NCBI GenBank assembly: GCA_963808625.1
Contig: CAWEHK010000041.1
Span: forward strand, 1-64,000
Direction of reading: 5' to 3'
Length of the DNA: 64,000 nucleotides
From: an uncultured delta proteobacterium
Lineage (GTDB): Bacteria > Desulfobacterota > Syntrophobacteria > Syntrophobacterales > Syntrophobacteraceae
Positions within the stretch are counted from its first letter, which is position 1. Every line of letters starts with the position of its first letter. This document shows positions 2,476-13,363 of this stretch, piece by piece. The position numbers were made by a program, and so were the translations under genes. The notes below the pieces were generated by a model. That model made no database searches. It had not been told where the DNA came from and worked only from the letters and a program-made list of their open reading frames with translations.

Positions 2476-2541
2476 GTTCAACACGATTGTATGGGGAATG
2501 AGAAAAAGCCCTCACTCCCCATACAATCTTACATGTTAAGT
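2476..2541 (+). other. attC-like recombination site (atypical: perfect stem, no extrahelical base)
   Basis: R'' GTTCAAC 2476-2482; R' GTTAAGT 2535-2541; internal stem GATTGTATGGGGA/TCCCCATACAATC. Confidence 0.7.
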
Positions 2542-2584
2542 GCTACAGAGAACATAGTGGAAAGTCCAGGACAAGGAGAGCAGA

Positions 2585-3427
2585 ATGATTTATAAGTATT
2601 TTCAAAGAGAACCTAAGCAAATAATAGGTGGCGGACGCCCTCATTATTTTACAAAGAAGGAGCTTGAATCTTCCGTTGAAGCAAAGGAATATAATGCTAT
2701 CCCTTATGAACCATTATATAGAATAAAAATTACCCCAAGTGAAAGAATCCATTGGGAAGAATTTGAAGGTGGGCAAATCGAAAGAAGAGTATGGGCCGCT
2801 TTTGGCCGTCATGGTGGCGGATGGGAAATGAAAACGGGGCAACAATTTTTAATGGAAACGCAAAAACAAACCGAAAATAATTGCTATGCAGGATGCTGGA
2901 TTCTGGATAAGCAATTGATCTCAGGGGGATACAGAGAAGAATATGGTTCTTTCACTGATAATGGGATGAAACATGGTTTAATACTGAACTTGTTGGAAGA
3001 GATCTTTAAGACCTATTCAGATAAAGGAGATAGCGGGGATTTGAAACACAGAGAGAAAAGTAAAGGTACTTTTCAGTGGAAAATTCCCGACGATTCAATT
3101 GGAGGGATACTCTACTGGAAGATGAAAGACTTAGAATATACTATTTCTGTATTAATTAAATCATGCGAAAATGTTTACAATGGCCTCAAGTTTTGGGGCG
3201 TTTTCTGGAAAGACAATTCTAATAACAACAAAAGAGAACTTTATAAACCTGTTGAAGTTGTTATTCCTGGATTCCCTTTGTTTACAGATAATGATATTAA
3301 AAGTAACAACATGAGTTGGTTTAAAGAAGTGCTACACAAAGGATTTGATGATATTGGCGAGATATTAGGGAGAAAGAGTAAATGCGTAGATAGATTAACT
3401 GAGTATTACAGTCTAAATCTAATTTAA
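2585..3427 (+). CDS. Hypothetical cassette protein (280 aa, AT-rich)
   Basis: AAGGAG RBS; intact ORF between R' GTTAAGT(GC) at 2535 and its complement (GC)ACTTAAC at 3442; no recognised motif. Confidence 0.8.
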   Translation: MIYKYFQREPKQIIGGGRPHYFTKKELESSVEAKEYNAIPYEPLYRIKITPSERIHWEEFEGGQIERRVWAAFGRHGGGWEMKTGQQFLMETQKQTENNCYAGCWILDKQLISGGYREEYGSFTDNGMKHGLILNLLEEIFKTYSDKGDSGDLKHREKSKGTFQWKIPDDSIGGILYWKMKDLEYTISVLIKSCENVYNGLKFWGVFWKDNSNNNKRELYKPVEVVIPGFPLFTDNDIKSNNMSWFKEVLHKGFDDIGEILGRKSKCVDRLTEYYSLNLI

Positions 3428-3441
3428 CTGTAATACTGTGC

Positions 3442-3529
3442 ACTTAACAAGAAAATCCAGCGGACAGGTAATAAGCGTAGCGTGATATTAACAAAGGTAA
3501 TTGCCCCGCCGCTAATTTTTGTGTTAGCA
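3442..3529 (+). other. attC site
   Basis: R'' ACTTAAC 3442-3448; L boxes AAAATCCAGCGG / CCGCTAATTTT with an extra C; R' GTTAGCA 3523-3529. Confidence 0.85.
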
Positions 3530-3575
3530 TGCGCCACCAGCTCGATCCTATTGAGCGAACACTGCCAGGATCAAT

Positions 3576-4538
3576 ATGAGCGATAAAAGAGACGACATCC
3601 CTGAATTCCAGTATGATGTATGTTTATCATTCGCTGGAAAAGAACGTGACTATGTTAGGAGTCTTGCGTTCGCTTTAAATCAGGCGGGAGTGCGGGTCTT
3701 CTATGATGAATATGAGCAGGCGGAATTATGGGGAAAGGATCTGTATACGCATCTGGATTATGTATATCGCCAGAGTGCTAGATTCTGTGTTTTATTCATT
3801 TCGAAGCATTATGCTGAAAAACTATGGACTAATCACGAAAGACAGAGTGCTCAAGCAAGGGCATTCACTGAAAATCGAGAGTACATATTGCCCGCCCGCT
3901 TTGATGACACAGCAATTCCCGGTTTGCGCAATACTGTTGGCTACATAGATCTCCGTACCACTACGCAATCCGAACTCCTCCCCCTTATCCTACAGAAAGT
4001 CGGAGAGCGACCCCGTGTTAACTACTTGCCACCAGTTCCAGATAGGCTTTTTGCCTTATTGAAAGCAAAAAATCAGAGGAAGAAAGAGAAGATCTTAGAT
4101 CAAGCTTATGGTTTTTTCGAGGGTCTTCAACGGATGTCACCTGAGGAGCGTAATGTAATTTTTACTGTATTCTTGCATGGGTGCGATGGAGAACTACCCG
4201 ACAACATTCATATGAACATTGACTTACTTCGGCGCTACACCGGTCTGACACCTATAAAGCTCAAGCAAGTACTCGGAGGATTGCAATCTCTTGGATTCTT
4301 CTGCTCGCTTCGTGAGGATGATGAAAATCCGGAGTACCTCGGCAGTTACGAAATGGTAGTCTTAGAGTGGCATAATCTACGTTCAAAATCGTCTGGAAAT
4401 GCAACCAAAGTCGCTTATACAATGGTTACAGGTTGCAGTGTTGACACGTGCATGAGGTGCTGGATTGAAGCAATCAATCGTCTGGACTTCTCTCAGTTGG
4501 CATCCGCAACGGCAAGCATTGACGATCACAAAGAATAG
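3576..4538 (+). CDS. TIR domain protein (TIR_2-type) with C-terminal helical/wHTH-like region, carried as a cassette
   Basis: YDVCLSFAG...VFYDEYE...LWGKDL...FISKHY...WTNHE...YILPARFDDT...GYIDLR is a typical bacterial TIR with the catalytic Glu position conserved. Confidence 0.88.
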   Translation: MSDKRDDIPEFQYDVCLSFAGKERDYVRSLAFALNQAGVRVFYDEYEQAELWGKDLYTHLDYVYRQSARFCVLFISKHYAEKLWTNHERQSAQARAFTENREYILPARFDDTAIPGLRNTVGYIDLRTTTQSELLPLILQKVGERPRVNYLPPVPDRLFALLKAKNQRKKEKILDQAYGFFEGLQRMSPEERNVIFTVFLHGCDGELPDNIHMNIDLLRRYTGLTPIKLKQVLGGLQSLGFFCSLREDDENPEYLGSYEMVVLEWHNLRSKSSGNATKVAYTMVTGCSVDTCMRCWIEAINRLDFSQLASATASIDDHKE

Positions 4539-4626
4539 GATTTGATCATGTAGCAGACGAAGTTGAACAGATGAAGACTTCAGAAGGTTGCTTAAGAACA
4601 AGCTCGGTTCAACATACACCTGTTAT

Positions 4627-4717
4627 TGCTAACAAAAAAATCCAGCGGTCGGCGGGGAACGCCTCTTCCATCTTCTTCTTGGCCTTTGGCCCGCCGCCGC
4701 TGATTTTCACGTTGGCT
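4627..4717 (+). other. attC site
   Basis: R'' TGCTAAC 4627-4633 (complement of GTTAGCA at 3523); L boxes AAAATCCAGCGG / CCGCTGATTTT; R' GTTGGC(T) from 4711; L arm closely matches attC at 3442. Confidence 0.88.
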
Positions 4718-5546
4718 TGCGACACGATGTCGCATAGTTGAGTGTACTCAGGTAGTTACCTGGAGTACCCGGCATGTTCCTGCCGGTCTCTACGCAGGCG
4801 TGCTACCGTCGCGCTGATGACGGGGTGCGAAGCCCTGTGGACAATGTACCGAATCGGGTTCAACTGGTGACAGGCGAACCCCTCGGGGAATCCTCCCCCG
4901 TTAAGGGCTGGAGAGGGATGATATGGTGAAAACATTTGAATTCCTGCAAGCGTCGTCAACGAATACAGACCTACGAGGATTAACCTCGTTTTGCAGGTCG
5001 AGGGCCGCTTCCCAGTGTTTGCGGCAAGAGGTCAGGTTGCAGGTCTCCTAACTGCCTGCACGGAACCGTAGTACCTCCGGCGTAGAGGGCGCACCTAAGT
5101 CATCCATAGGATCAACTATGTGGAACGTGGAAACCTCGTATCTCCGCCTGGTTTTCCAGGCAGGTGAACCGCAAGGCACACTGTTGGGGGTGCGGGATGA
5201 AGAGGCTGGAAGAAGCGAATGCCATCCTGTAACGGGATGGATACGGGTTCAAGATTTGCCCGGCCCGAAAGGGAGCAGACGTCCGGCGGGTGTCTCATTG
5301 CGAGAAAGCTGAGAGAACCACAGCAAGGAAGGAAAGCAAATGAACACGGCTTCGGCCAGTGTGTGCACCTTCCCCCGAAAGGCATTGTGGCTGTTGGCGT
5401 GTATCGCAAAGTCAATGAGGGCAGTTCCTCATCGGCGGGTGGCTCCACAAGGGCTCACCATTGAGATGCTTGAGCCGCGTGACGGGAAACTGTCACGCAC
5501 GGTTCTGGGGGGGGAAAGGGACCGAGAGGCCCCTGACCTACCCGGT
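4717..5546 (+). ncRNA. Group II intron (IIB/CL-like) with internally deleted IEP
   Basis: 5' end TTGCGACACG; full-length domain V GAGCCGCGTGACGGGAAACTGTCACGCACGGTTC 5472-5505 (AGC triad, GAAA loop); domain VI ending CCTACCCGGT; RBS + ATG at 5340 but no RT coding capacity. Ends uncertain by 1-2 nt. Confidence 0.85.
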
Positions 5547-5800
5547 TATATTATTAAAGGGGACGACATGTGTTGCCACCGATGAAGAATGGACCCAGGC
5601 TGCGGTGAAAATTGGACCCATTCGGTCGTTGCCGTGGCGTGAACTGTGCACCGATTATTGAACCCATCTTATGACGTATCGACTGCCCCCTGATTCCCGT
5701 GTTTTTTCCGCCCCTTGCTCTGAGGGCAAAATTATTTGCTGGAAGCGAGAAAAGACCGCATAGAGTCGTTGTCCCACCCTGAGAGAGCGGAGAGACAACG

Positions 5801-6205
5801 ATGAAAAAGGTCATGGCCTGCCGCAAACGTCCATGCCGCATTTGCAAACGCTGGTTCAGAGCCAATCCACGACTTAAAGACCGCCAGATGACCTGTGGAG
5901 AGGAATCGTGTAAGCGTGAGTGGCACCGGAGAAAGTGCGCCCAGTGGAACAGAGAGAATTCTGAGCCCATCAAGAAAGAGCGTTTGGCGCAAAAGCTCAA
6001 AGCCGCCGCTTGGGCAGGCGGGCAGACGAAGCTCTCGGCTGAAACGCCTTCTCGCCCGGCATCCGTGCAGAGCGAACACCTCCTGCCATGGATTCAAGAG
6101 GTGATCACCGTTCAAGTTATTATAATGCTTGATTATTTGGTCCGACATTCGGTGAAGCATGCTCAAGAAGTGATTCGCAGGCAAGCTGCCGTAAATACAG
6201 GATGA
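5801..6205 (+). CDS. Basic Cys-rich (putative Zn-finger) accessory protein
   Basis: GGAG RBS; CRICKRWF...RQMTCGEESC...C pattern. Confidence 0.7.
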   Translation: MKKVMACRKRPCRICKRWFRANPRLKDRQMTCGEESCKREWHRRKCAQWNRENSEPIKKERLAQKLKAAAWAGGQTKLSAETPSRPASVQSEHLLPWIQEVITVQVIIMLDYLVRHSVKHAQEVIRRQAAVNTG

Positions 6206-6295
6206 TTGGTCCAACTACCCGCCCGGGTCGTTCAAGATGTGATCGACCCGGGTGAGCCCACTTTGGTAGCTTCTTCATGGAACAAGGAGGAGCCA

Positions 6296-7176
6296 ATGGG
6301 CGAAGAAAAATGGACCGATATTCCCGTAAGCGCGATAGGTGAGAGTTATGGCCGTTTTCGTCTCATTTATCCGGGCAGTGAAGTCACCGTGATCGAATCT
6401 ATGCGCCAGTTCGGACAGATCCTTCCGGTCGTCGTGGTAAAAGGGCTGGAGCCTTCCTGTTATGAAATGATCGACGGCTTCAAACGGCTTCGAGCTTCTC
6501 GCAAACTGGGGTTGAAGACCATCCAGGCAAAGGTGCTCTCTCTTGAGGCGCCACCTCTTAAAGCAGCGATCCTTCAACTCAACTGGAAGGCAAGATCCAT
6601 CCGGGAGGTGGAAGAGGCGTTGATCGTCCAGTCCCTTCATCGGGAGGACAAGCTTAGCCAGGTGGAAATAGGGCTTCTCCTGAGGCGGCACAAAAGCTGG
6701 GTCTCCCGGCGTATCGCTCTGGTAGAAAAGCTCTCCGATGAAGTGCTGAGCAACCTCAAGCTCGGACTGATCAGTGCGGGCCACGGCCGTCAGCTCACCC
6801 GGTTGCCACGTGGCAACCAGGACAGGGCCCTTGCGACTATCCTAAAGCACCGTCTGTGCTGCAGGGAAGCCGAGAAGCTCGTTGCCATGCTCTGTGAGCG
6901 TCCGGATGGGAGCATGAGGCCATCCTGCATCTTCCCCTCAAAATCCTCGATGAGCGCACACCGCCTCGCCCTTCCAGACAAATTAAAGAGGAGCATGAGC
7001 CCTCTTTGGCCGAGCAACTTCGGGACTTTAAAAAGACCTGCGAGGGGCTCCTGGGCGCCATCAGTGTCTGTGACCTCGATCCGTTGAGCCCGCAGGAGCG
7101 GGAGCTCCTGCTTCCTCTCACCGAAAGCCTCGAGATTCTCCTGCGTCGGATGAGAAATGCTCTCAACACAACATGA
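6296..7176 (+). CDS. ParB/Srx-like N-terminal domain + HTH protein; frameshift near 6905
   Basis: AAGGAGG RBS; SMRQFGQILPVVV...YEMIDGFKRLRA (GxxR motif); HTH LSQVEIGLLLRRHKSWVSRR; reading continues in a shifted frame to TGA 7174-7176. Confidence 0.8.
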
Positions 7177-7186
7177 GGAAAACCCC

Positions 7187-8783
7187 ATGCCGCCCCTCAT
7201 TATTTCCAGTCGAGAGGACCTTGAGCATCAACTGGTGACCCTCTACGCCCAGGGCTTGAACATCCGAGCCCTCTCGAGGCATTTTTGTCTGGGCAGAAAC
7301 ACCGTAAGGCGCATCCTTCGCAAACACAAAGCCAGGCGGGAGCATGGTCATGATGCCAAAGGATCACCTCTTCCCCGGGCAAGCAAGCTCGATCCCTATC
7401 TACCTCGGATCCGGGCCCTTCTGGATGAGTTTCCAGACATCACCGGTGAGCGCCTCTTTGAAGAGATGCGGGCCGAAGGCTATATGGGAGGGATCTCCAT
7501 CCTGAGGGACCGCCTTCGGTCCATGCGATCTCACCCGAAGAAGGAGCCGGTCGTCCGCTTTGAGACAGACCCGGGGGTTCAGGGACAAATGGACTGGAGC
7601 CCCTACACCATCCGGTTCCTGAAGGGCGGCAAGGCCACAGTTTTATGCTTTTCCTACATCCTGGCTTTCTCCAGAAGACAGTATATCGATTTTACTCTTC
7701 ATCGTGATTTCCATACTCTGATCAGACGCCACCGGGATGCCTTCGACTTTTTTGGCGGCGTTCCACGACACTGCCTATACGATGGAGAAAAGACGGTGGT
7801 GCTGCGCTTTGAGGCCGGGCGCCCCGTTTTTAATCCCGCCTTCATCGCCTTTATCACCCATTATGAATGCCATCCCATAGCCGTCCGGCGGGCCAGAACG
7901 AAAGGAAAGGTGGAAAGACCCTTCCAGTTTGTCGAAGGCAATCTCCTGAATGGGCGCAAGTTCCAGGATCTTGAGCACTTGAGGGCCATGGCCGGCTGGT
8001 GGATGAAGGAAAAAAGCGACCGCCATCGCCATGAAACCACAGGCCAGGTCGTGATCGAGCTCTTCCTGGAGCAGGAAAAGGATGCTCTCCGGCCCCTCCC
8101 CGTACACCCCTATGATTGCTCCGAGGTGGCCCACAGGGTCTGCCGTGTCGATGGCTTCATCGAGTTTGAGACCAACCTCTATTCCGTTCCCTACCAGTAT
8201 GTGGCCGATATCCTGGTCTTGAAGGCCACCGAGCAGGAGGTGAGCTTCTATCAGTCCTGATCTCGAGCTCATTGCATGCCACGAGCGCCTTCCCACAGGC
8301 GCATCAAAGATGGTCGAAAACCCGGAGCATCGCCTGCACCCCAAAACACGCTATGGACTCGAGCCCGTCAGAGAATCCTTCCTCGCTCTGGGACAAGCAT
8401 CAGAGGACTTCCTCAAAGGCCTCCAGCAAAAACACCCTAGAAACTGCGGCTTTCACGCCCGCTTCATCCTGAGGCTCAAAGAGCACTATGCATCGGATGA
8501 CATCAACTCTGCCCTTCGCCATGCAACGGTCTACCACGCCTATGACGGCAGAGCCATCGAGAGGATCTTGAAGGCAAAGGCTAAACCCAGGACCCTGGAA
8601 GCTATCAGGAACGACCGGGCAAGGACAGCACTCACGCAATCACTCCCGGTCATCCGGCAACGCAATCTCGAGGATTACTGCACCTTTCTCTCACAGAATG
8701 GAGAACACCATGGACCAGACCACAGCCCGGATCAAAAAGCACCTGAAAGCCCTCAAGCTCTCGACCATGGAAAAGATCCTTGA
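7187..8783 (+). CDS. istA: IS21-family transposase IstA; frameshift near 8250
   Basis: N-terminal HTH, SKLDPY, RFETDPGVQGQMDW, GVPRHCLYD, KGKVERPF, YSVP; C-terminus in ORF 8310-8783. Confidence 0.9.
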
Positions 8784-9513
8784 TCAGGAGCTCGCCAGGG
8801 CTGCCAGCGAAAAGAGCCCGCCATCCACTTTGATCCTGCGTCTTCTCGATGCTGAAGCTCAGGCGGCAAGGGCGCGCCGCATCGAACGGCGCATCCGGGA
8901 ATCCGCCCTTGCCGAGCGCAAGCTTCTCGCCGACTTCGATTTTGACTTCCAGAAGGGCATTGACAAAAGCCAGATCATGGAGCTCGCAAACCTGGGCTTC
9001 GTTGAGCGAAAGCAGGGGCTAATCCTGGCAGGATCGTCCGGAACTGGCAAAAGTCACATCGCCAAAGCCCTTCTACTCATCGCTTGCTCCCAGCTCTATT
9101 CCTGCCGCTACACCACCGCATCCAACATGCTCTCGAACCTCATGGCCTCGCTTTGCGACGGCACCCTCCATAACGCTCTCAAAGTCTACACCCGCCCCCA
9201 AGTCCTTCTCATCGACGAGATCGGCTTCGACCGCATCGAGCAGGAATCAGCAAGAAATGCCGCCCTCTTCTTCAAAGTCATTGATGCAAGGTATTGCAAG
9301 GGCTCAACCATCGCGACCTGCAACATCAACTTCAAAGAGCTGGGTGATTATCTCGGAGACCCCGTCATCACAGCCTCCCTCGTTGACAGGATGGTCCATC
9401 ACTCCATCATCATCCACATCGAAGGACCCAGCTACAGGATGCATGAATCCAAGAGGCTCAACCGCGCCGCCACCAAGAGAGGAAAAGACCATGGCGAGCC
9501 GACCCATGATTGA
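8710..9513 (+). CDS. istB: IS21-family AAA+ helper ATPase IstB
   Basis: FDFDFQ, Walker A GSSGTGKS, Walker B LLIDEIG, DRMVHH, GPSYR. Confidence 0.93.
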   Translation: MDQTTARIKKHLKALKLSTMEKILDQELARAASEKSPPSTLILRLLDAEAQAARARRIERRIRESALAERKLLADFDFDFQKGIDKSQIMELANLGFVERKQGLILAGSSGTGKSHIAKALLLIACSQLYSCRYTTASNMLSNLMASLCDGTLHNALKVYTRPQVLLIDEIGFDRIEQESARNAALFFKVIDARYCKGSTIATCNINFKELGDYLGDPVITASLVDRMVHHSIIIHIEGPSYRMHESKRLNRAATKRGKDHGEPTHD

Positions 9514-9946
9514 CAGGTCGCCGCTCCTGCCGGAAAGAGCTCGAAAGATCCAGGGAAGCTTTGCCTTTATCGAGCACCGCTTCCTTCAGGGCGGTTTCTT
9601 GCAGACCCTAACCCATCATGAGCTCCTCCTTTACTTCTTCCTGATCCTTGCCGCCGATCGAAATGGCATTTCCTTTTACAGCTACGATCGCATATGCACG
9701 ATCCTCGGCCTGGGGGTAGAGGACTACATCCTCGCTCGAAACGGTCTCATCCGCAAAGACCTGCTCGCCTTCGACGGCCATCGCTTCCAGGCCCTCTCCC
9801 TTCCCCCAAAGCCTGTGCGCTCATCCACACGACTTCTCAAGACCCAACACGACATGATCGAGCATGATCCTGCAACCATCCATCGCGAAATCTGCCATGC
9901 TCTGGGTACAGACCCCGACAAACGAACCAAGACTTCCCGAAAGTAG
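9506..9946 (+). CDS. Winged-helix (replication-initiator-like) accessory protein
   Basis: Overlaps istB stop; LTHHELLLYFFL..AADRNGISFYSYDRICTILGL...ARNGLIRKDLL resembles Rep/HTH_36-like wHTH folds. Confidence 0.6.
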   Translation: MIDRSPLLPERARKIQGSFAFIEHRFLQGGFLQTLTHHELLLYFFLILAADRNGISFYSYDRICTILGLGVEDYILARNGLIRKDLLAFDGHRFQALSLPPKPVRSSTRLLKTQHDMIEHDPATIHREICHALGTDPDKRTKTSRK

Positions 9947-10292
9947 ATAACCTGCCCGGCAGCCACAGCACTACCATTAAAAGATCTCGCCATCGGCATT
10001 TGCTCCTCCATTCATTCTTCTACCTTCCACCACTTCCCTTGAACACCTTCCGGACACTGCCTGCGCTTCTCGAAGAATCTGTCGACGCACGAAACGCTCA
10101 GATCGGGAAGAATAAGAAGTAGATTCAAAGAAGATCAATTGCGGGCGGGCGGACTACACTGGACAGACCAGCCGGGCCTCAGAGGGTGGGTCCAAAAACC
10201 GGTGGAAACGAACCGGAAAATCCCGATTATGCTATTCTCGCGTGGGTCCACTTCTCAGGTCTCAAAGGGTTCATTCTCTATCGGTGGTGACA

Positions 10293-10563: not shown

Positions 10564-11352
10564 TCACGACACGACGTTGTCTTTAGGCGCCTTCGGCGAT
10601 TCTCTTCTCGCTCTTAGGGTTTCCTTCAGTCGATAGCTGTCCCAATTGCAATGGATGATATGAGCCTTATGGGTCAACCGATCCAGGAGCGCTGCCGTCA
10701 GCGTGGCGTCGCCAAACACTTGCGTCCAATCGGCAAATCCAAGGTTGGTAGTAACAATGACTGAGCCCCGCTCGTGACGCTCCGCCAACACTTGGAACAG
10801 CAATTCAGCGGACTCCTTGGAAAAAGGGACGTAACCCAACTCGTCAACCACCACTAACCCGTAGCGGGCATATTTCTGTATCACCCGGCTCAGTCTGCGC
10901 TCTGTTTGAGCCTCGATGAGCTCATTACTCACCCCGCAACAATTTACGAACCGTGTGCTGATCCCTTGCCCGCAAGCGGCAACCCCCAATCCGGTCGCCA
11001 AGTGCGTCTTGCCTGCGCCACTTTTTCCCGTGAAGATGATATTTCTATGACTGCGAAGGTATTCTCCGGATTCCAGCTCGCGCATTAAGCGTTTGTCCAG
11101 TCCAGGAGCGCTGCTGTAATCAAATTGCTCCAGGGTCTTCAGCAAAGGAAATTTTGCCTCCCGGAGCTTACGCTTCAGACGGTTTTCCGCTCTCATCTGA
11201 AGCTCCACTTCGGTGGTGGCCAGAAGAAACTCCTCGTGGCTGGTTCCATTCTCCCGCGCTTGGCGCAGCAAGGACCCAAGGTTCGCGTACATATGCGATA
11301 GGTTGAGTGCCTTCAGATTCTCTTTGAGCAGCATCTCGGTACTGGCTTTCAT
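10564..11352 (-). CDS. istB: IS21-family helper ATPase IstB
   Basis: AKFPLLKTLEQFDY, GKSGAGKTHLA, VVDELGY, LLDRLTH, SYRL. Confidence 0.95.
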   Translation of the reverse strand: MKASTEMLLKENLKALNLSHMYANLGSLLRQARENGTSHEEFLLATTEVELQMRAENRLKRKLREAKFPLLKTLEQFDYSSAPGLDKRLMRELESGEYLRSHRNIIFTGKSGAGKTHLATGLGVAACGQGISTRFVNCCGVSNELIEAQTERRLSRVIQKYARYGLVVVDELGYVPFSKESAELLFQVLAERHERGSVIVTTNLGFADWTQVFGDATLTAALLDRLTHKAHIIHCNWDSYRLKETLRARRESPKAPKDNVVS

Positions 11353-12845
11353 GACAAACCTCCCAGCTGCGCATACACCGAAACGTCAGCCGGTTCGGTT
11401 GCCGGCCAGCCACATAGAGGCTCACACGCACCTACCCTATTTACCGGCAGCAGCAGGTGTTTTACTCCAGCGCTGGAGCTCACCCCATTTTGGACCGCCC
11501 GCTCCACCGCAGCCTCCACATCTTCGGTCCGATGTTCCCGGTAGAGCATCAACACCATAATAAAATCCCGTGTTCCATCGGTTTCGCCATTACTTGCTAC
11601 AAACTTATCCCGGAGCCGCTCCAAACACTCCGGCCAGCTCTTGCGCCACTCTCTTATGGGCCGGGCCGAATCGAAAGCCCCGGGCCTCTGATAAAGCAGA
11701 TCCAGGTAATGGTCCGGATTAAGCTGCCATTTGTTGTTGCCGAACATTCTCCCATGGCTCGCTATCTTCTTGCCTCTCTGGTAAACCTCCACACGGTCCA
11801 CTTCAAGGATCGCCTTTACCGGAAACCCAACATAACATGTGGGAACCGAGTAACGGTTCTTGTCCACGATGACGGTTGAATAAGGATTTACCTTGCTGTA
11901 CACCGTCTCTATGTTGCTGAACGGATGCGTCGGGAGTGCCAATAAATGGGCTCTTTCTTCCTCGAAGAGCTCATCGACGCTTTTCTCACGACCCTCTATC
12001 CGATGGCTTCCGTACTGCACACAGCTCCCCAGGATCTCTTCGTTAAGCTCCTCAAGGCTCTCGGCTCTCGGGATGGGAACCATGTAGTTGCGCCTGGCAA
12101 AACCTACCAATCCTTCCACACCACCCTTTTCGTGGCCGCTGTCTTTATTACAAAAACGCGCCGTGAAATTATAGTAACTGTGAAACTTCCTGAACGCCTC
12201 CTGTTCCCGGCGGTCTTTCCCCTTGAGAACCTTTTCCACGGCGCTGGTCAGATTGTCGTAAATCAACGTCCCGAAAACCCCACCATAGAATGAAAACGCC
12301 CGTATATGCGCATCAAAGAAGGCTGCTTGCCTCTCACATGGGTAACACCGCACAAAGTGCTTCCCCGAATACTTGGAGCGCATGCAAAAAAACTTGAGCC
12401 GTGTCGCCTCTCCGGCAATGATCGCCACAGCCCCTCCCCAGTCCGCTTCAGCCTCTTTGCCACAATCCGGCTCCAAAGGAATAAAGGCCTTGTCCCCACT
12501 TAATCCCAGACCTATCTTGGCTTGCCGCACGTACTGGCGAACCGTTGTGGCACAACCTGCAAAACCTTCTTCCCGTACCAGTCGATGATAGATCCTCGTC
12601 GCCGTGTGACGTTGCTTTCGCGGAGAATCCTTGTCCCCTTCCAACCATGAATCGATCAGACTCAAGTACGGTCCGAGCACCGGATACGGCTGAGATTGCC
12701 TCTGTCCGTAACCACTTGGCTCACCCCTCAAAACCTTGCGGATCGTCTTCCGATCATGGCCTGTTTCCCGCGCAATCTCTCGTAAACCCTTCCCATAAAC
12801 CCGATGCGCTATCCGAATGTACTCATACTGATCCATGTTGATCAT
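11349..12845 (-). CDS. istA: IS21-family transposase IstA
   Basis: HTH REIARETGHDRKTIRK, EAEADWG, LIYDN, EKGGVEGLV, NRYSVP; ATGA overlap with istB. Confidence 0.95.
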   Translation of the reverse strand: MINMDQYEYIRIAHRVYGKGLREIARETGHDRKTIRKVLRGEPSGYGQRQSQPYPVLGPYLSLIDSWLEGDKDSPRKQRHTATRIYHRLVREEGFAGCATTVRQYVRQAKIGLGLSGDKAFIPLEPDCGKEAEADWGGAVAIIAGEATRLKFFCMRSKYSGKHFVRCYPCERQAAFFDAHIRAFSFYGGVFGTLIYDNLTSAVEKVLKGKDRREQEAFRKFHSYYNFTARFCNKDSGHEKGGVEGLVGFARRNYMVPIPRAESLEELNEEILGSCVQYGSHRIEGREKSVDELFEEERAHLLALPTHPFSNIETVYSKVNPYSTVIVDKNRYSVPTCYVGFPVKAILEVDRVEVYQRGKKIASHGRMFGNNKWQLNPDHYLDLLYQRPGAFDSARPIREWRKSWPECLERLRDKFVASNGETDGTRDFIMVLMLYREHRTEDVEAAVERAVQNGVSSSAGVKHLLLPVNRVGACEPLCGWPATEPADVSVYAQLGGLS

Positions 12846-13205
12846 CCCTCCTGTCCTCCGGTAACTCTGGTTGATGAATTCACCAGATCTTGCTACCAGA
12901 TGACTCTGAAGGGTGGGGGAATTTTGGACTGTCATCTGCCCCTTAAGTGGGGGAATTTTAGGCTATCAAAATCAAAGGTTCTCTTCTTGATCCGCTTTTT
13001 TCGTTGTCGCAGAACATTCGGCCATTAGTTTGTCACACAACTTCGTAAGTGCTGATACCGGTTCGTCTGTCTTGTCAGTTTGCAGGGGTTGCGGTTGGGG
13101 TGGTGGGTCCGTTCAAGGGTGAACTTGGCACCAGGGTAGCAGGCGAAAAAAGAAGACTCGGAGCGATCCGGGCCTTTTGTTGTTTAGAGGGCATTTCGGG
13201 GCTCT

Positions 13206-13286: not shown

Positions 13287-13363
<77 letters not shown>

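Follow-up and report, generated by a model that had tools for sequence, protein, structure and literature searches.

An ORF-less group II intron behind an integron attC and its likely place in a CL1/IIB1 clade that inserts at the attC top strand

The cassette array near the start of this contig raises the question of what kind of intron lies directly behind an integron attC site, and how it came to be there. To our knowledge, reviews give attC targeting as a speciality of class IIC introns. The window (the whole 64,000-nucleotide stretch that was analysed) carries the array at 2535-4717. It consists of two genes with an attC behind each, and in both attCs R'' exactly complements the opening core of the gene's own cassette: ACTTAAC in the first attC (3442-3529), and TGCTAAC in the second, the exact complement of the core GTTAGCA which opens the TIR cassette at 3523. 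On a home-made attC profile, trained on 11 intron-free attCs, the two sites score 46.4 and 49.4. The second, which is the target of the intron, has R'', L'', L' and R' boxes with an extrahelical base, lies behind a stop codon, and has a core complementary to the inverse core. It folds with a z of -5.1 on the top strand and -3.4 on the bottom strand.

The surroundings of the array were also described. No intI above the cut-off was found on the window contig, whose array sits 2.5 kb from the contig start, and two were found elsewhere in the source assembly. A tyrosine recombinase and an IS91-type transposase (190-2232), both frameshifted as assembled, lie between 20-nt inverted repeats at 19-38 and 2464-2483, and the right one continues into a hairpin resembling an attC (about 2477-2541) which ends at the core of cassette 1. 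The TIR_2 cassette gene has weak PADLOC matches (PDC-S66, ThsB) and may be a defence cassette. A second IS21 pair is at 10564-12935 on the minus strand. Just past the array and the IS cluster is a tRNA with a CAT anticodon (13290-13363, minus strand), possibly an island boundary.

The original prediction, made from the sequence, was of a non-IIC intron with a 34-nt domain V and an AGC triad, starting right after GTTGGC in the orientation of the cassette genes. This was borne out: the intron starts directly after GTTGGC, on the same strand as both upstream cassette genes, and it has Rfam matches to RF02012 at 4768-4908 (68.5 bits) and RF00029 at 5470-5546 (60.4 bits). It has six domains, including a domain V with catalytic triad and bulge and a domain VI with a branch A, and its RNA folds with a z of -3.9 against 20 shuffles. 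No RT ORF lies inside it, and its streamlined domain IV is common to ORF-less relatives of about 830 nt in other genomes. Among the matches listed, the distance from branch A to intron end is 7 in 68 of the 74 complete relatives.

Table 1. Features of the array, the intron and the downstream flank, in window coordinates (a slash in a motif marks the junction)
Feature	Position	Strand	Description
Cassette 1	2535..3529	+	core GTTAAGT 2535-2541; ORF 280 aa (2585-3427), no known family; attC 3442-3529
Cassette 2 gene	3576..4538	+	TIR_2-domain protein, 320 aa
Target attC	4627..4717	+	R'' TGCTAAC 4627-4633, L'' AATCCAGC, L' GCTGATT, 5-nt spacer, R' GTTGGC/T; IBS1 = 4711-4716
ORF-less IIB1 group II intron	4717..5546	+	830 nt, ends UUGCG...GU
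Domain I	4733..5120	+	basal stem 4733-4741 with 5112-5120
EBS2 loop	4958..4966	+	weak pairing with attC spacer
EBS1 CCUAAC	5047..5052	+	in Id3 loop 5039-5059; complement of R' GTTAGG; 5/6 pairs with local site
Domain II	about 5134-5198	+	predicted fold
Domain III	5205..5287	+	assigned from predicted fold
Domain IV, streamlined	5288..5471	+	about 185 nt; IEP SD/start remnant 5329-5342 retained
Domain V	5472..5505	+	34 nt, AGC triad, AC bulge
Domain VI	5506..5546	+	bulged branch A at 5540, 7 nt from intron end
Next-cassette remnant (3' exon)	5547..5570	+	24 nt with SD-like GGGGA and ATG
IS21-family element	5571..10292	+	4.7 kb; istA/istB plus ParB-like and other ORFs; cuts next cassette

The ends of the intron are UUGCG...GU, and the GUGYG...AY ends are absent. 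In the 74 complete introns among the matches listed, the first and penultimate bases covary, with U and G in 36, G and A in 33 and other combinations in 5. The UUGCG...GU ends are a compensatory variant, and the two forms switch repeatedly on the RNA tree. This covariation agrees with the contact between first and penultimate bases as cited in PMC4238363. For the gamma-gamma' contact only 14 introns could be parsed, and these gave no informative covariation signal.

Whether the intron belongs to a separate attC-targeting lineage, as originally predicted, depends on where its relatives sit. Relatives were gathered by one DNA pattern scan and three protein scans, from a phylum sample, and from regions of three multi-copy genomes; they are a sample. 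From the DNA pattern scan 46 matches without intron similarity were dropped, and matches L096-L129 have short flanks. With a 5' profile cut-off of at least 120 bits there are at least 105 distinct insertions, six copies from the source assembly counted. The phylum sample had a match in 10 of 301 genomes, again counting the source assembly, and Desulfobacterota predominate in the record titles of the listed relatives, joined by Acidobacteria, KSB1, Gammaproteobacteria, Chlorobiaceae and others. One plasmid record with 60-80% IEP identity was found among 5000 matches listed, and no plasmid record covers 80% of the intron RNA. Sequencing runs contained at most 0.18 of the words, so we make no claim about habitat. 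Some distant relatives (L171, L172, L173, L182 and L369; four Bacteroidales) insert further downstream of CCGTT(A/G)G and not at +5/+6, and may have a related target in Bacteroidota repeat arrays.

Among the matches listed, 89 of the 101 insertions with enough flank sit 5-7 nt after GTT or ATT. The attC profile could be applied to 96 of the listed sites: 54 reach a score of 20, 62 reach 15, and 34 are below 15, while of 1500 random genomic GTT sites 1 reaches 20 and 3 reach 15. Reduced to a single representative for each of the 52 clusters at 93%, the set has 57% at 15 or more and 81% behind GTT or ATT. An earlier genome-wide attC scan was noisy (41 matches, 13.6 expected). No intron-free allele was found for any site. 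A FastTree phylogeny was made from 142 IEPs among the matches listed, leaving out 66 IEP loci without a 5' call. All 27 attC-scored sites fall in a clade of 52 IEPs (support 0.95), which further contains 19 GTT-only sites and 6 of other kinds; outside it are 90 IEPs, 10 of them GTT-only and none attC-scored. All 52 are En-minus, as scored by motif and length. Both the flanks and the tree agree with the predicted lineage, and the window intron is very probably a non-autonomous member of an endonuclease-less CL1/IIB1 clade which homes to the top strand of integron attC sites.

EBS1 explains much of how these introns find their register. It was parsed in 63 of 91 introns among the matches listed. 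Pairing between it and the six bases that end the 5' exon comes to 5.06 of 6 in these 63, while permutation gives 3.17 and shifting 0.6-2.1; a pairing of 6 bp is that of CL1/IIB1. The insertion register is set by EBS1, with CCUAAC types after GTTRRN and CUAACG types after GTTRR, and three relatives with altered EBS1 sequences (L063, L085, L023) have matching non-attC sites. The covariation of EBS1 and IBS1 fixes the 5' splice site where it was first placed. In the window copy the pair at -1 is a C x C mismatch. The boundaries can also be judged from the cassettes themselves. Where the next attC is visible, at 12 sites, removing the intron gives a core which agrees with the complement of R'' in this attC at 13 of 16 exon-derived positions, and each shifted boundary gives 5 of 16. 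The junctions are therefore fixed in the lineage, and it is the downstream cassette whose core the intron interrupts, at the top-strand position that the original prediction gave it.

EBS1 alone cannot give the specificity, because the source assembly holds 2,447 GTT hexamers which pair 6/6 with CCUAAC and 25,747 which pair at least 5/6, against at most 59 attC-like matches. The contribution of EBS2 seems small: at the best of 12 registers, and with related sequences counted, it pairs with the attC spacer at 2.59 of 6 positions, and permutation gives 2.00 (n=51). The first base of the 3' exon is C in 25, G in 21, A in 11 and T in 10 of 67 sites, and varies among near-identical introns. In the distal 5' exon, an A is found at -14, in the L' box region, in 68% of attC sites.

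The extra information may be read from the attC right arm as sequence, or the RNP may require the folded top-strand attC stem and not its sequence, as in class IIC. An obligatory hairpin would suit the weak EBS2, whose partner is a variable spacer, and the strong folding of high-scoring sites (z -2.1). It would also suit the core attC clade's departure from the rule linking residue 173 to position -15, which the outgroup keeps: a boundary control on the outgroup recovers the published correlation between Glu173 and G-15, with E and G together in 38 of 49. A further comparison comes from 27 attC-type sites with low scores, which are perhaps decayed attCs and so make a blurred test. They fold slightly above background (z -1.1 vs -0.3, p=0.016), which again fits a hairpin, but they retain L'-like sequence (p=3e-6) and show no enrichment of a stem at the L' position (p=0.82). 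Because the L'-like sequence persists where the stem does not, these comparisons favour the sequence reading, and obligatory hairpin recognition seems rather unlikely.

Several other candidates were tried and rejected. The residue-173 rule does not explain the G at -15 in the clade. A 'ruler' relating offset and spacer had a raw p of 0.005, which was gone after de-duplication (median p=0.16). A preference for one replication strand was suggested by genome G301, where all 17 matches divide along two arcs of the chromosome, but the intron-free attCs do the same (26/28), genome G302 is mixed, and the skews of the source assembly are weak. In G301, 26 of 28 attC matches have the two-arc orientation, and sparse GC-skew samples suggest that top strands oppose the fork, although the skew is noisy.

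The source assembly contains six related loci, and all of them follow GTT or ATT plus 3 nt. Besides the window copy (contig C41) there are two complete ORF-less copies (C44 and C53) and a full-length copy (C36); C24 has a 5' fragment and C49 a deleted relic. The attC profile gives C41, C36, C24 and C53 scores of at least 20, C44 a borderline 15.2, and C49 4.9. In their first 570 nt the C44 and C53 copies are 95% identical to the window copy. An integron-integrase-like gene (C44:23541-24262), broken as assembled, lies upstream of the C44 copy and shares a strand with the array there. The C36 copy is 2264 nt long and 83% identical to the window copy. It encodes a CL1-type IEP of 498 aa with RVT_N, RVT_1 and GIIM domains, in which the domain search found no HNH match. 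The nearest solved structure is 6ME0 (E=2e-156), a IIB1/CL1 intron according to the text available from PMC8643678. The C36 maturase is the sole intact one in the source assembly, which is 85% complete and could lack another helper IEP. It is the likely trans helper of the window intron, and the T. elongatus system, as described in the part of PMC2882425 consulted, is an experimental precedent for ORF-less introns mobilised in trans by a driver IEP.

The window copy might instead be an immobile relic, passively carried by cassette shuffling. It has no ORF, it has the mismatch at -1, and the cassette downstream of it is destroyed. Its domain V, branch A, EBS1 and fold are nevertheless intact, and the three near-identical ORF-less copies in the source assembly have different flanks on both sides. 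The window copy also groups with ORF-less copies of two other genomes and not with C36, in a clade that spans three genomes (support 0.95), and a relic is thus improbable. About as improbable is that nothing in attC beyond EBS1 is recognised, with insertion at any GTTRRN and survival only at attC because it is harmless or single-stranded there: a few non-attC GTTAGG-like sites (C49, L091, L144, L375) fit this, but the hexamer counts above, the many used attC sites that pair at just 4-5/6, and several near-identical G302 copies at different attCs all oppose it.

Returning to the preferred reading of a trans-mobilised attC-homing intron, a mechanism can be proposed. The array transcript would include the intron, and a maturase/RT acting in trans, most likely that of C36, would promote splicing and RNP formation. 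The comparisons show that EBS1 is held complementary to the conserved R' core, and it sets the register, so that the RNA reverse-splices 5 or 6 nt downstream of the G in GTT. With EBS2 weak and the first 3'-exon base free, extra specificity would come from the distal 5' exon, where the L' box region with A at -14 may be read as sequence, perhaps as a hairpin, and probably by the IEP. Because the IEP has no HNH domain, we infer from the available text of PMC4424553 that cDNA synthesis would be primed at replication forks.

With the determinants in the 5' exon, an occupied site remains a target and introns should stack. Stacking is observed in G301, with three introns behind one attC (L410) and two behind another (L406). 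These stacked introns are from different subfamilies and are arranged head to tail. At one attC of genome G302 (L420/L152, C10 about 412-417 kb) both kinds of intron are found: the bottom strand carries a IIC intron at R'', and the top strand a CL1-attC intron after R'.

Integron recombination crosses over at G/TT. Insertion behind that point would keep the crossover and the upstream attC and interrupt no ORF. The intron thus becomes part of the next cassette's 5' leader, and IntI excision of that cassette should carry the intron along. The original prediction went further, saying that the intron travels with the next cassette and is spliced out of the array transcript. Its place inside the next cassette's core stands. 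Travel is addressed by one ambiguous pair: L158 and L161 are the same intron with 225 of 226 downstream nucleotides identical, differing upstream of the crossover region, and the upstream flank of L158 is also common to L159. From these sequences, misassembly or intron-intron recombination is as possible as cassette-borne travel. Splicing found no support, as four RNA runs contained no exon junction, contigs of relatives covered DI-DIV, and the window copy has its C x C pair at -1. In one contig of RNA run X8 the 5' end of the intron (window 4718) is immediately preceded by a DVI-like end, which may come from a stacked copy or from a relative in circular form.

At this locus the next cassette can no longer be followed. 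The 3' exon has the RBS-like GGGGA and the ATG that were predicted, and the IS21-family element starts right behind this ATG, leaving no downstream gene. The ATG was considered as part of the IS end and rejected, since the IS starts at 5571. The flanks of the element do not join into one gene and there is no target duplication around it, which suggests an IS-associated deletion.

Taken more broadly, and only tentatively, this clade may be a second, independently evolved group of attC-homing retroelements. EBS1 would be hard-wired to the R' core, the remaining specificity would lie in the attC right arm or hairpin by way of the IEP, the 3' exon would be ignored, introns would stack, ORF-less families would cross genomes, and the integron integrase would be a second vehicle for introns inside cassettes. 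This would be a convergent capture of attC, at its other end and strand, by a IIB1/CL1 clade in many environmental phyla, and a testable case of a IIB intron recognising a repeated site with a variable middle. It predicts RNAs of 0.8-2.3 kb in cassette leaders, which could affect expression, excision and homologous rearrangement of arrays. RT-based surveys miss the ORF-less copies, and the clade is a possible natural tool for integron-directed retrohoming.

A full-text literature search returned one described member, UHB.I2, and a mention in Shewanella; earlier intron papers or a curated database could hold more. UHB.I2 (Sonbol and Siam 2021, PMC7923331) is a single full-length intron published as an isolated case. 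In the text available it resembles the window lineage in being IIB1/CL1 and En-minus, with UUGCG...GU ends and matching boundaries, in cassette orientation directly after attC, and its Id3 loop AGAACG (by eye, from the supplement sequence) would likewise pair with GTT. It differs from the window copy in being full-length. In the same text its authors report no flank conservation, do not identify EBS1 as anti-R' or the lineage, and speculate on a hairpin. The consulted text of PMC9229058 gives the Shewanella intron one sentence; it is likewise a CL1 intron inside an integron array, its site and orientation not analysed there. An attC-R'-targeting CL1 clade or an anti-R' EBS1 is absent from the available text of PMC7923331, PMC9229058, PMC3001079, PMC4424553, PMC8643678, PMC4028801, PMC2882425, PMC4238363, PMC12772301 and PMC5034289. 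The lineage, which the sequence comparisons support as a clade with a defined EBS1 pairing logic, thus appears to be new and was foreshadowed by UHB.I2.

Two better-known groups frame the comparison. Th.e.I3 (6ME0), EcI5 and the ORF-less TeI3 family of T. elongatus share the IEP family and RNA architecture, as far as the available text of PMC8643678 and PMC2882425 goes, and in TeI3 the ORF-less copies move in trans with a driver IEP. These introns have an HNH domain and homing sites with full EBS2/EBS2a pairing, whereas the window clade targets a repeated recombination site and its ORF-less form spans several genomes. The group IIC-attC introns (S.ma.I2, Ge.s.I1 type; the parts of PMC7923331 and PMC4424553 consulted) are, like the window clade, monophyletic attC specialists with a relaxed EBS2 and no endonuclease. 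They have a class IIC RNA with a short domain V and CGC triad, and insert in the opposite orientation on the bottom strand at the R'' end (TTGT/T), with one IIC intron on the attC top strand, from Enterobacter cloacae, cited by PMC7923331. The window clade, in contrast, is IIB1, with a 34-nt domain V and AGC triad in the window copy, and inserts on the top strand after R' with a 6-nt EBS1.
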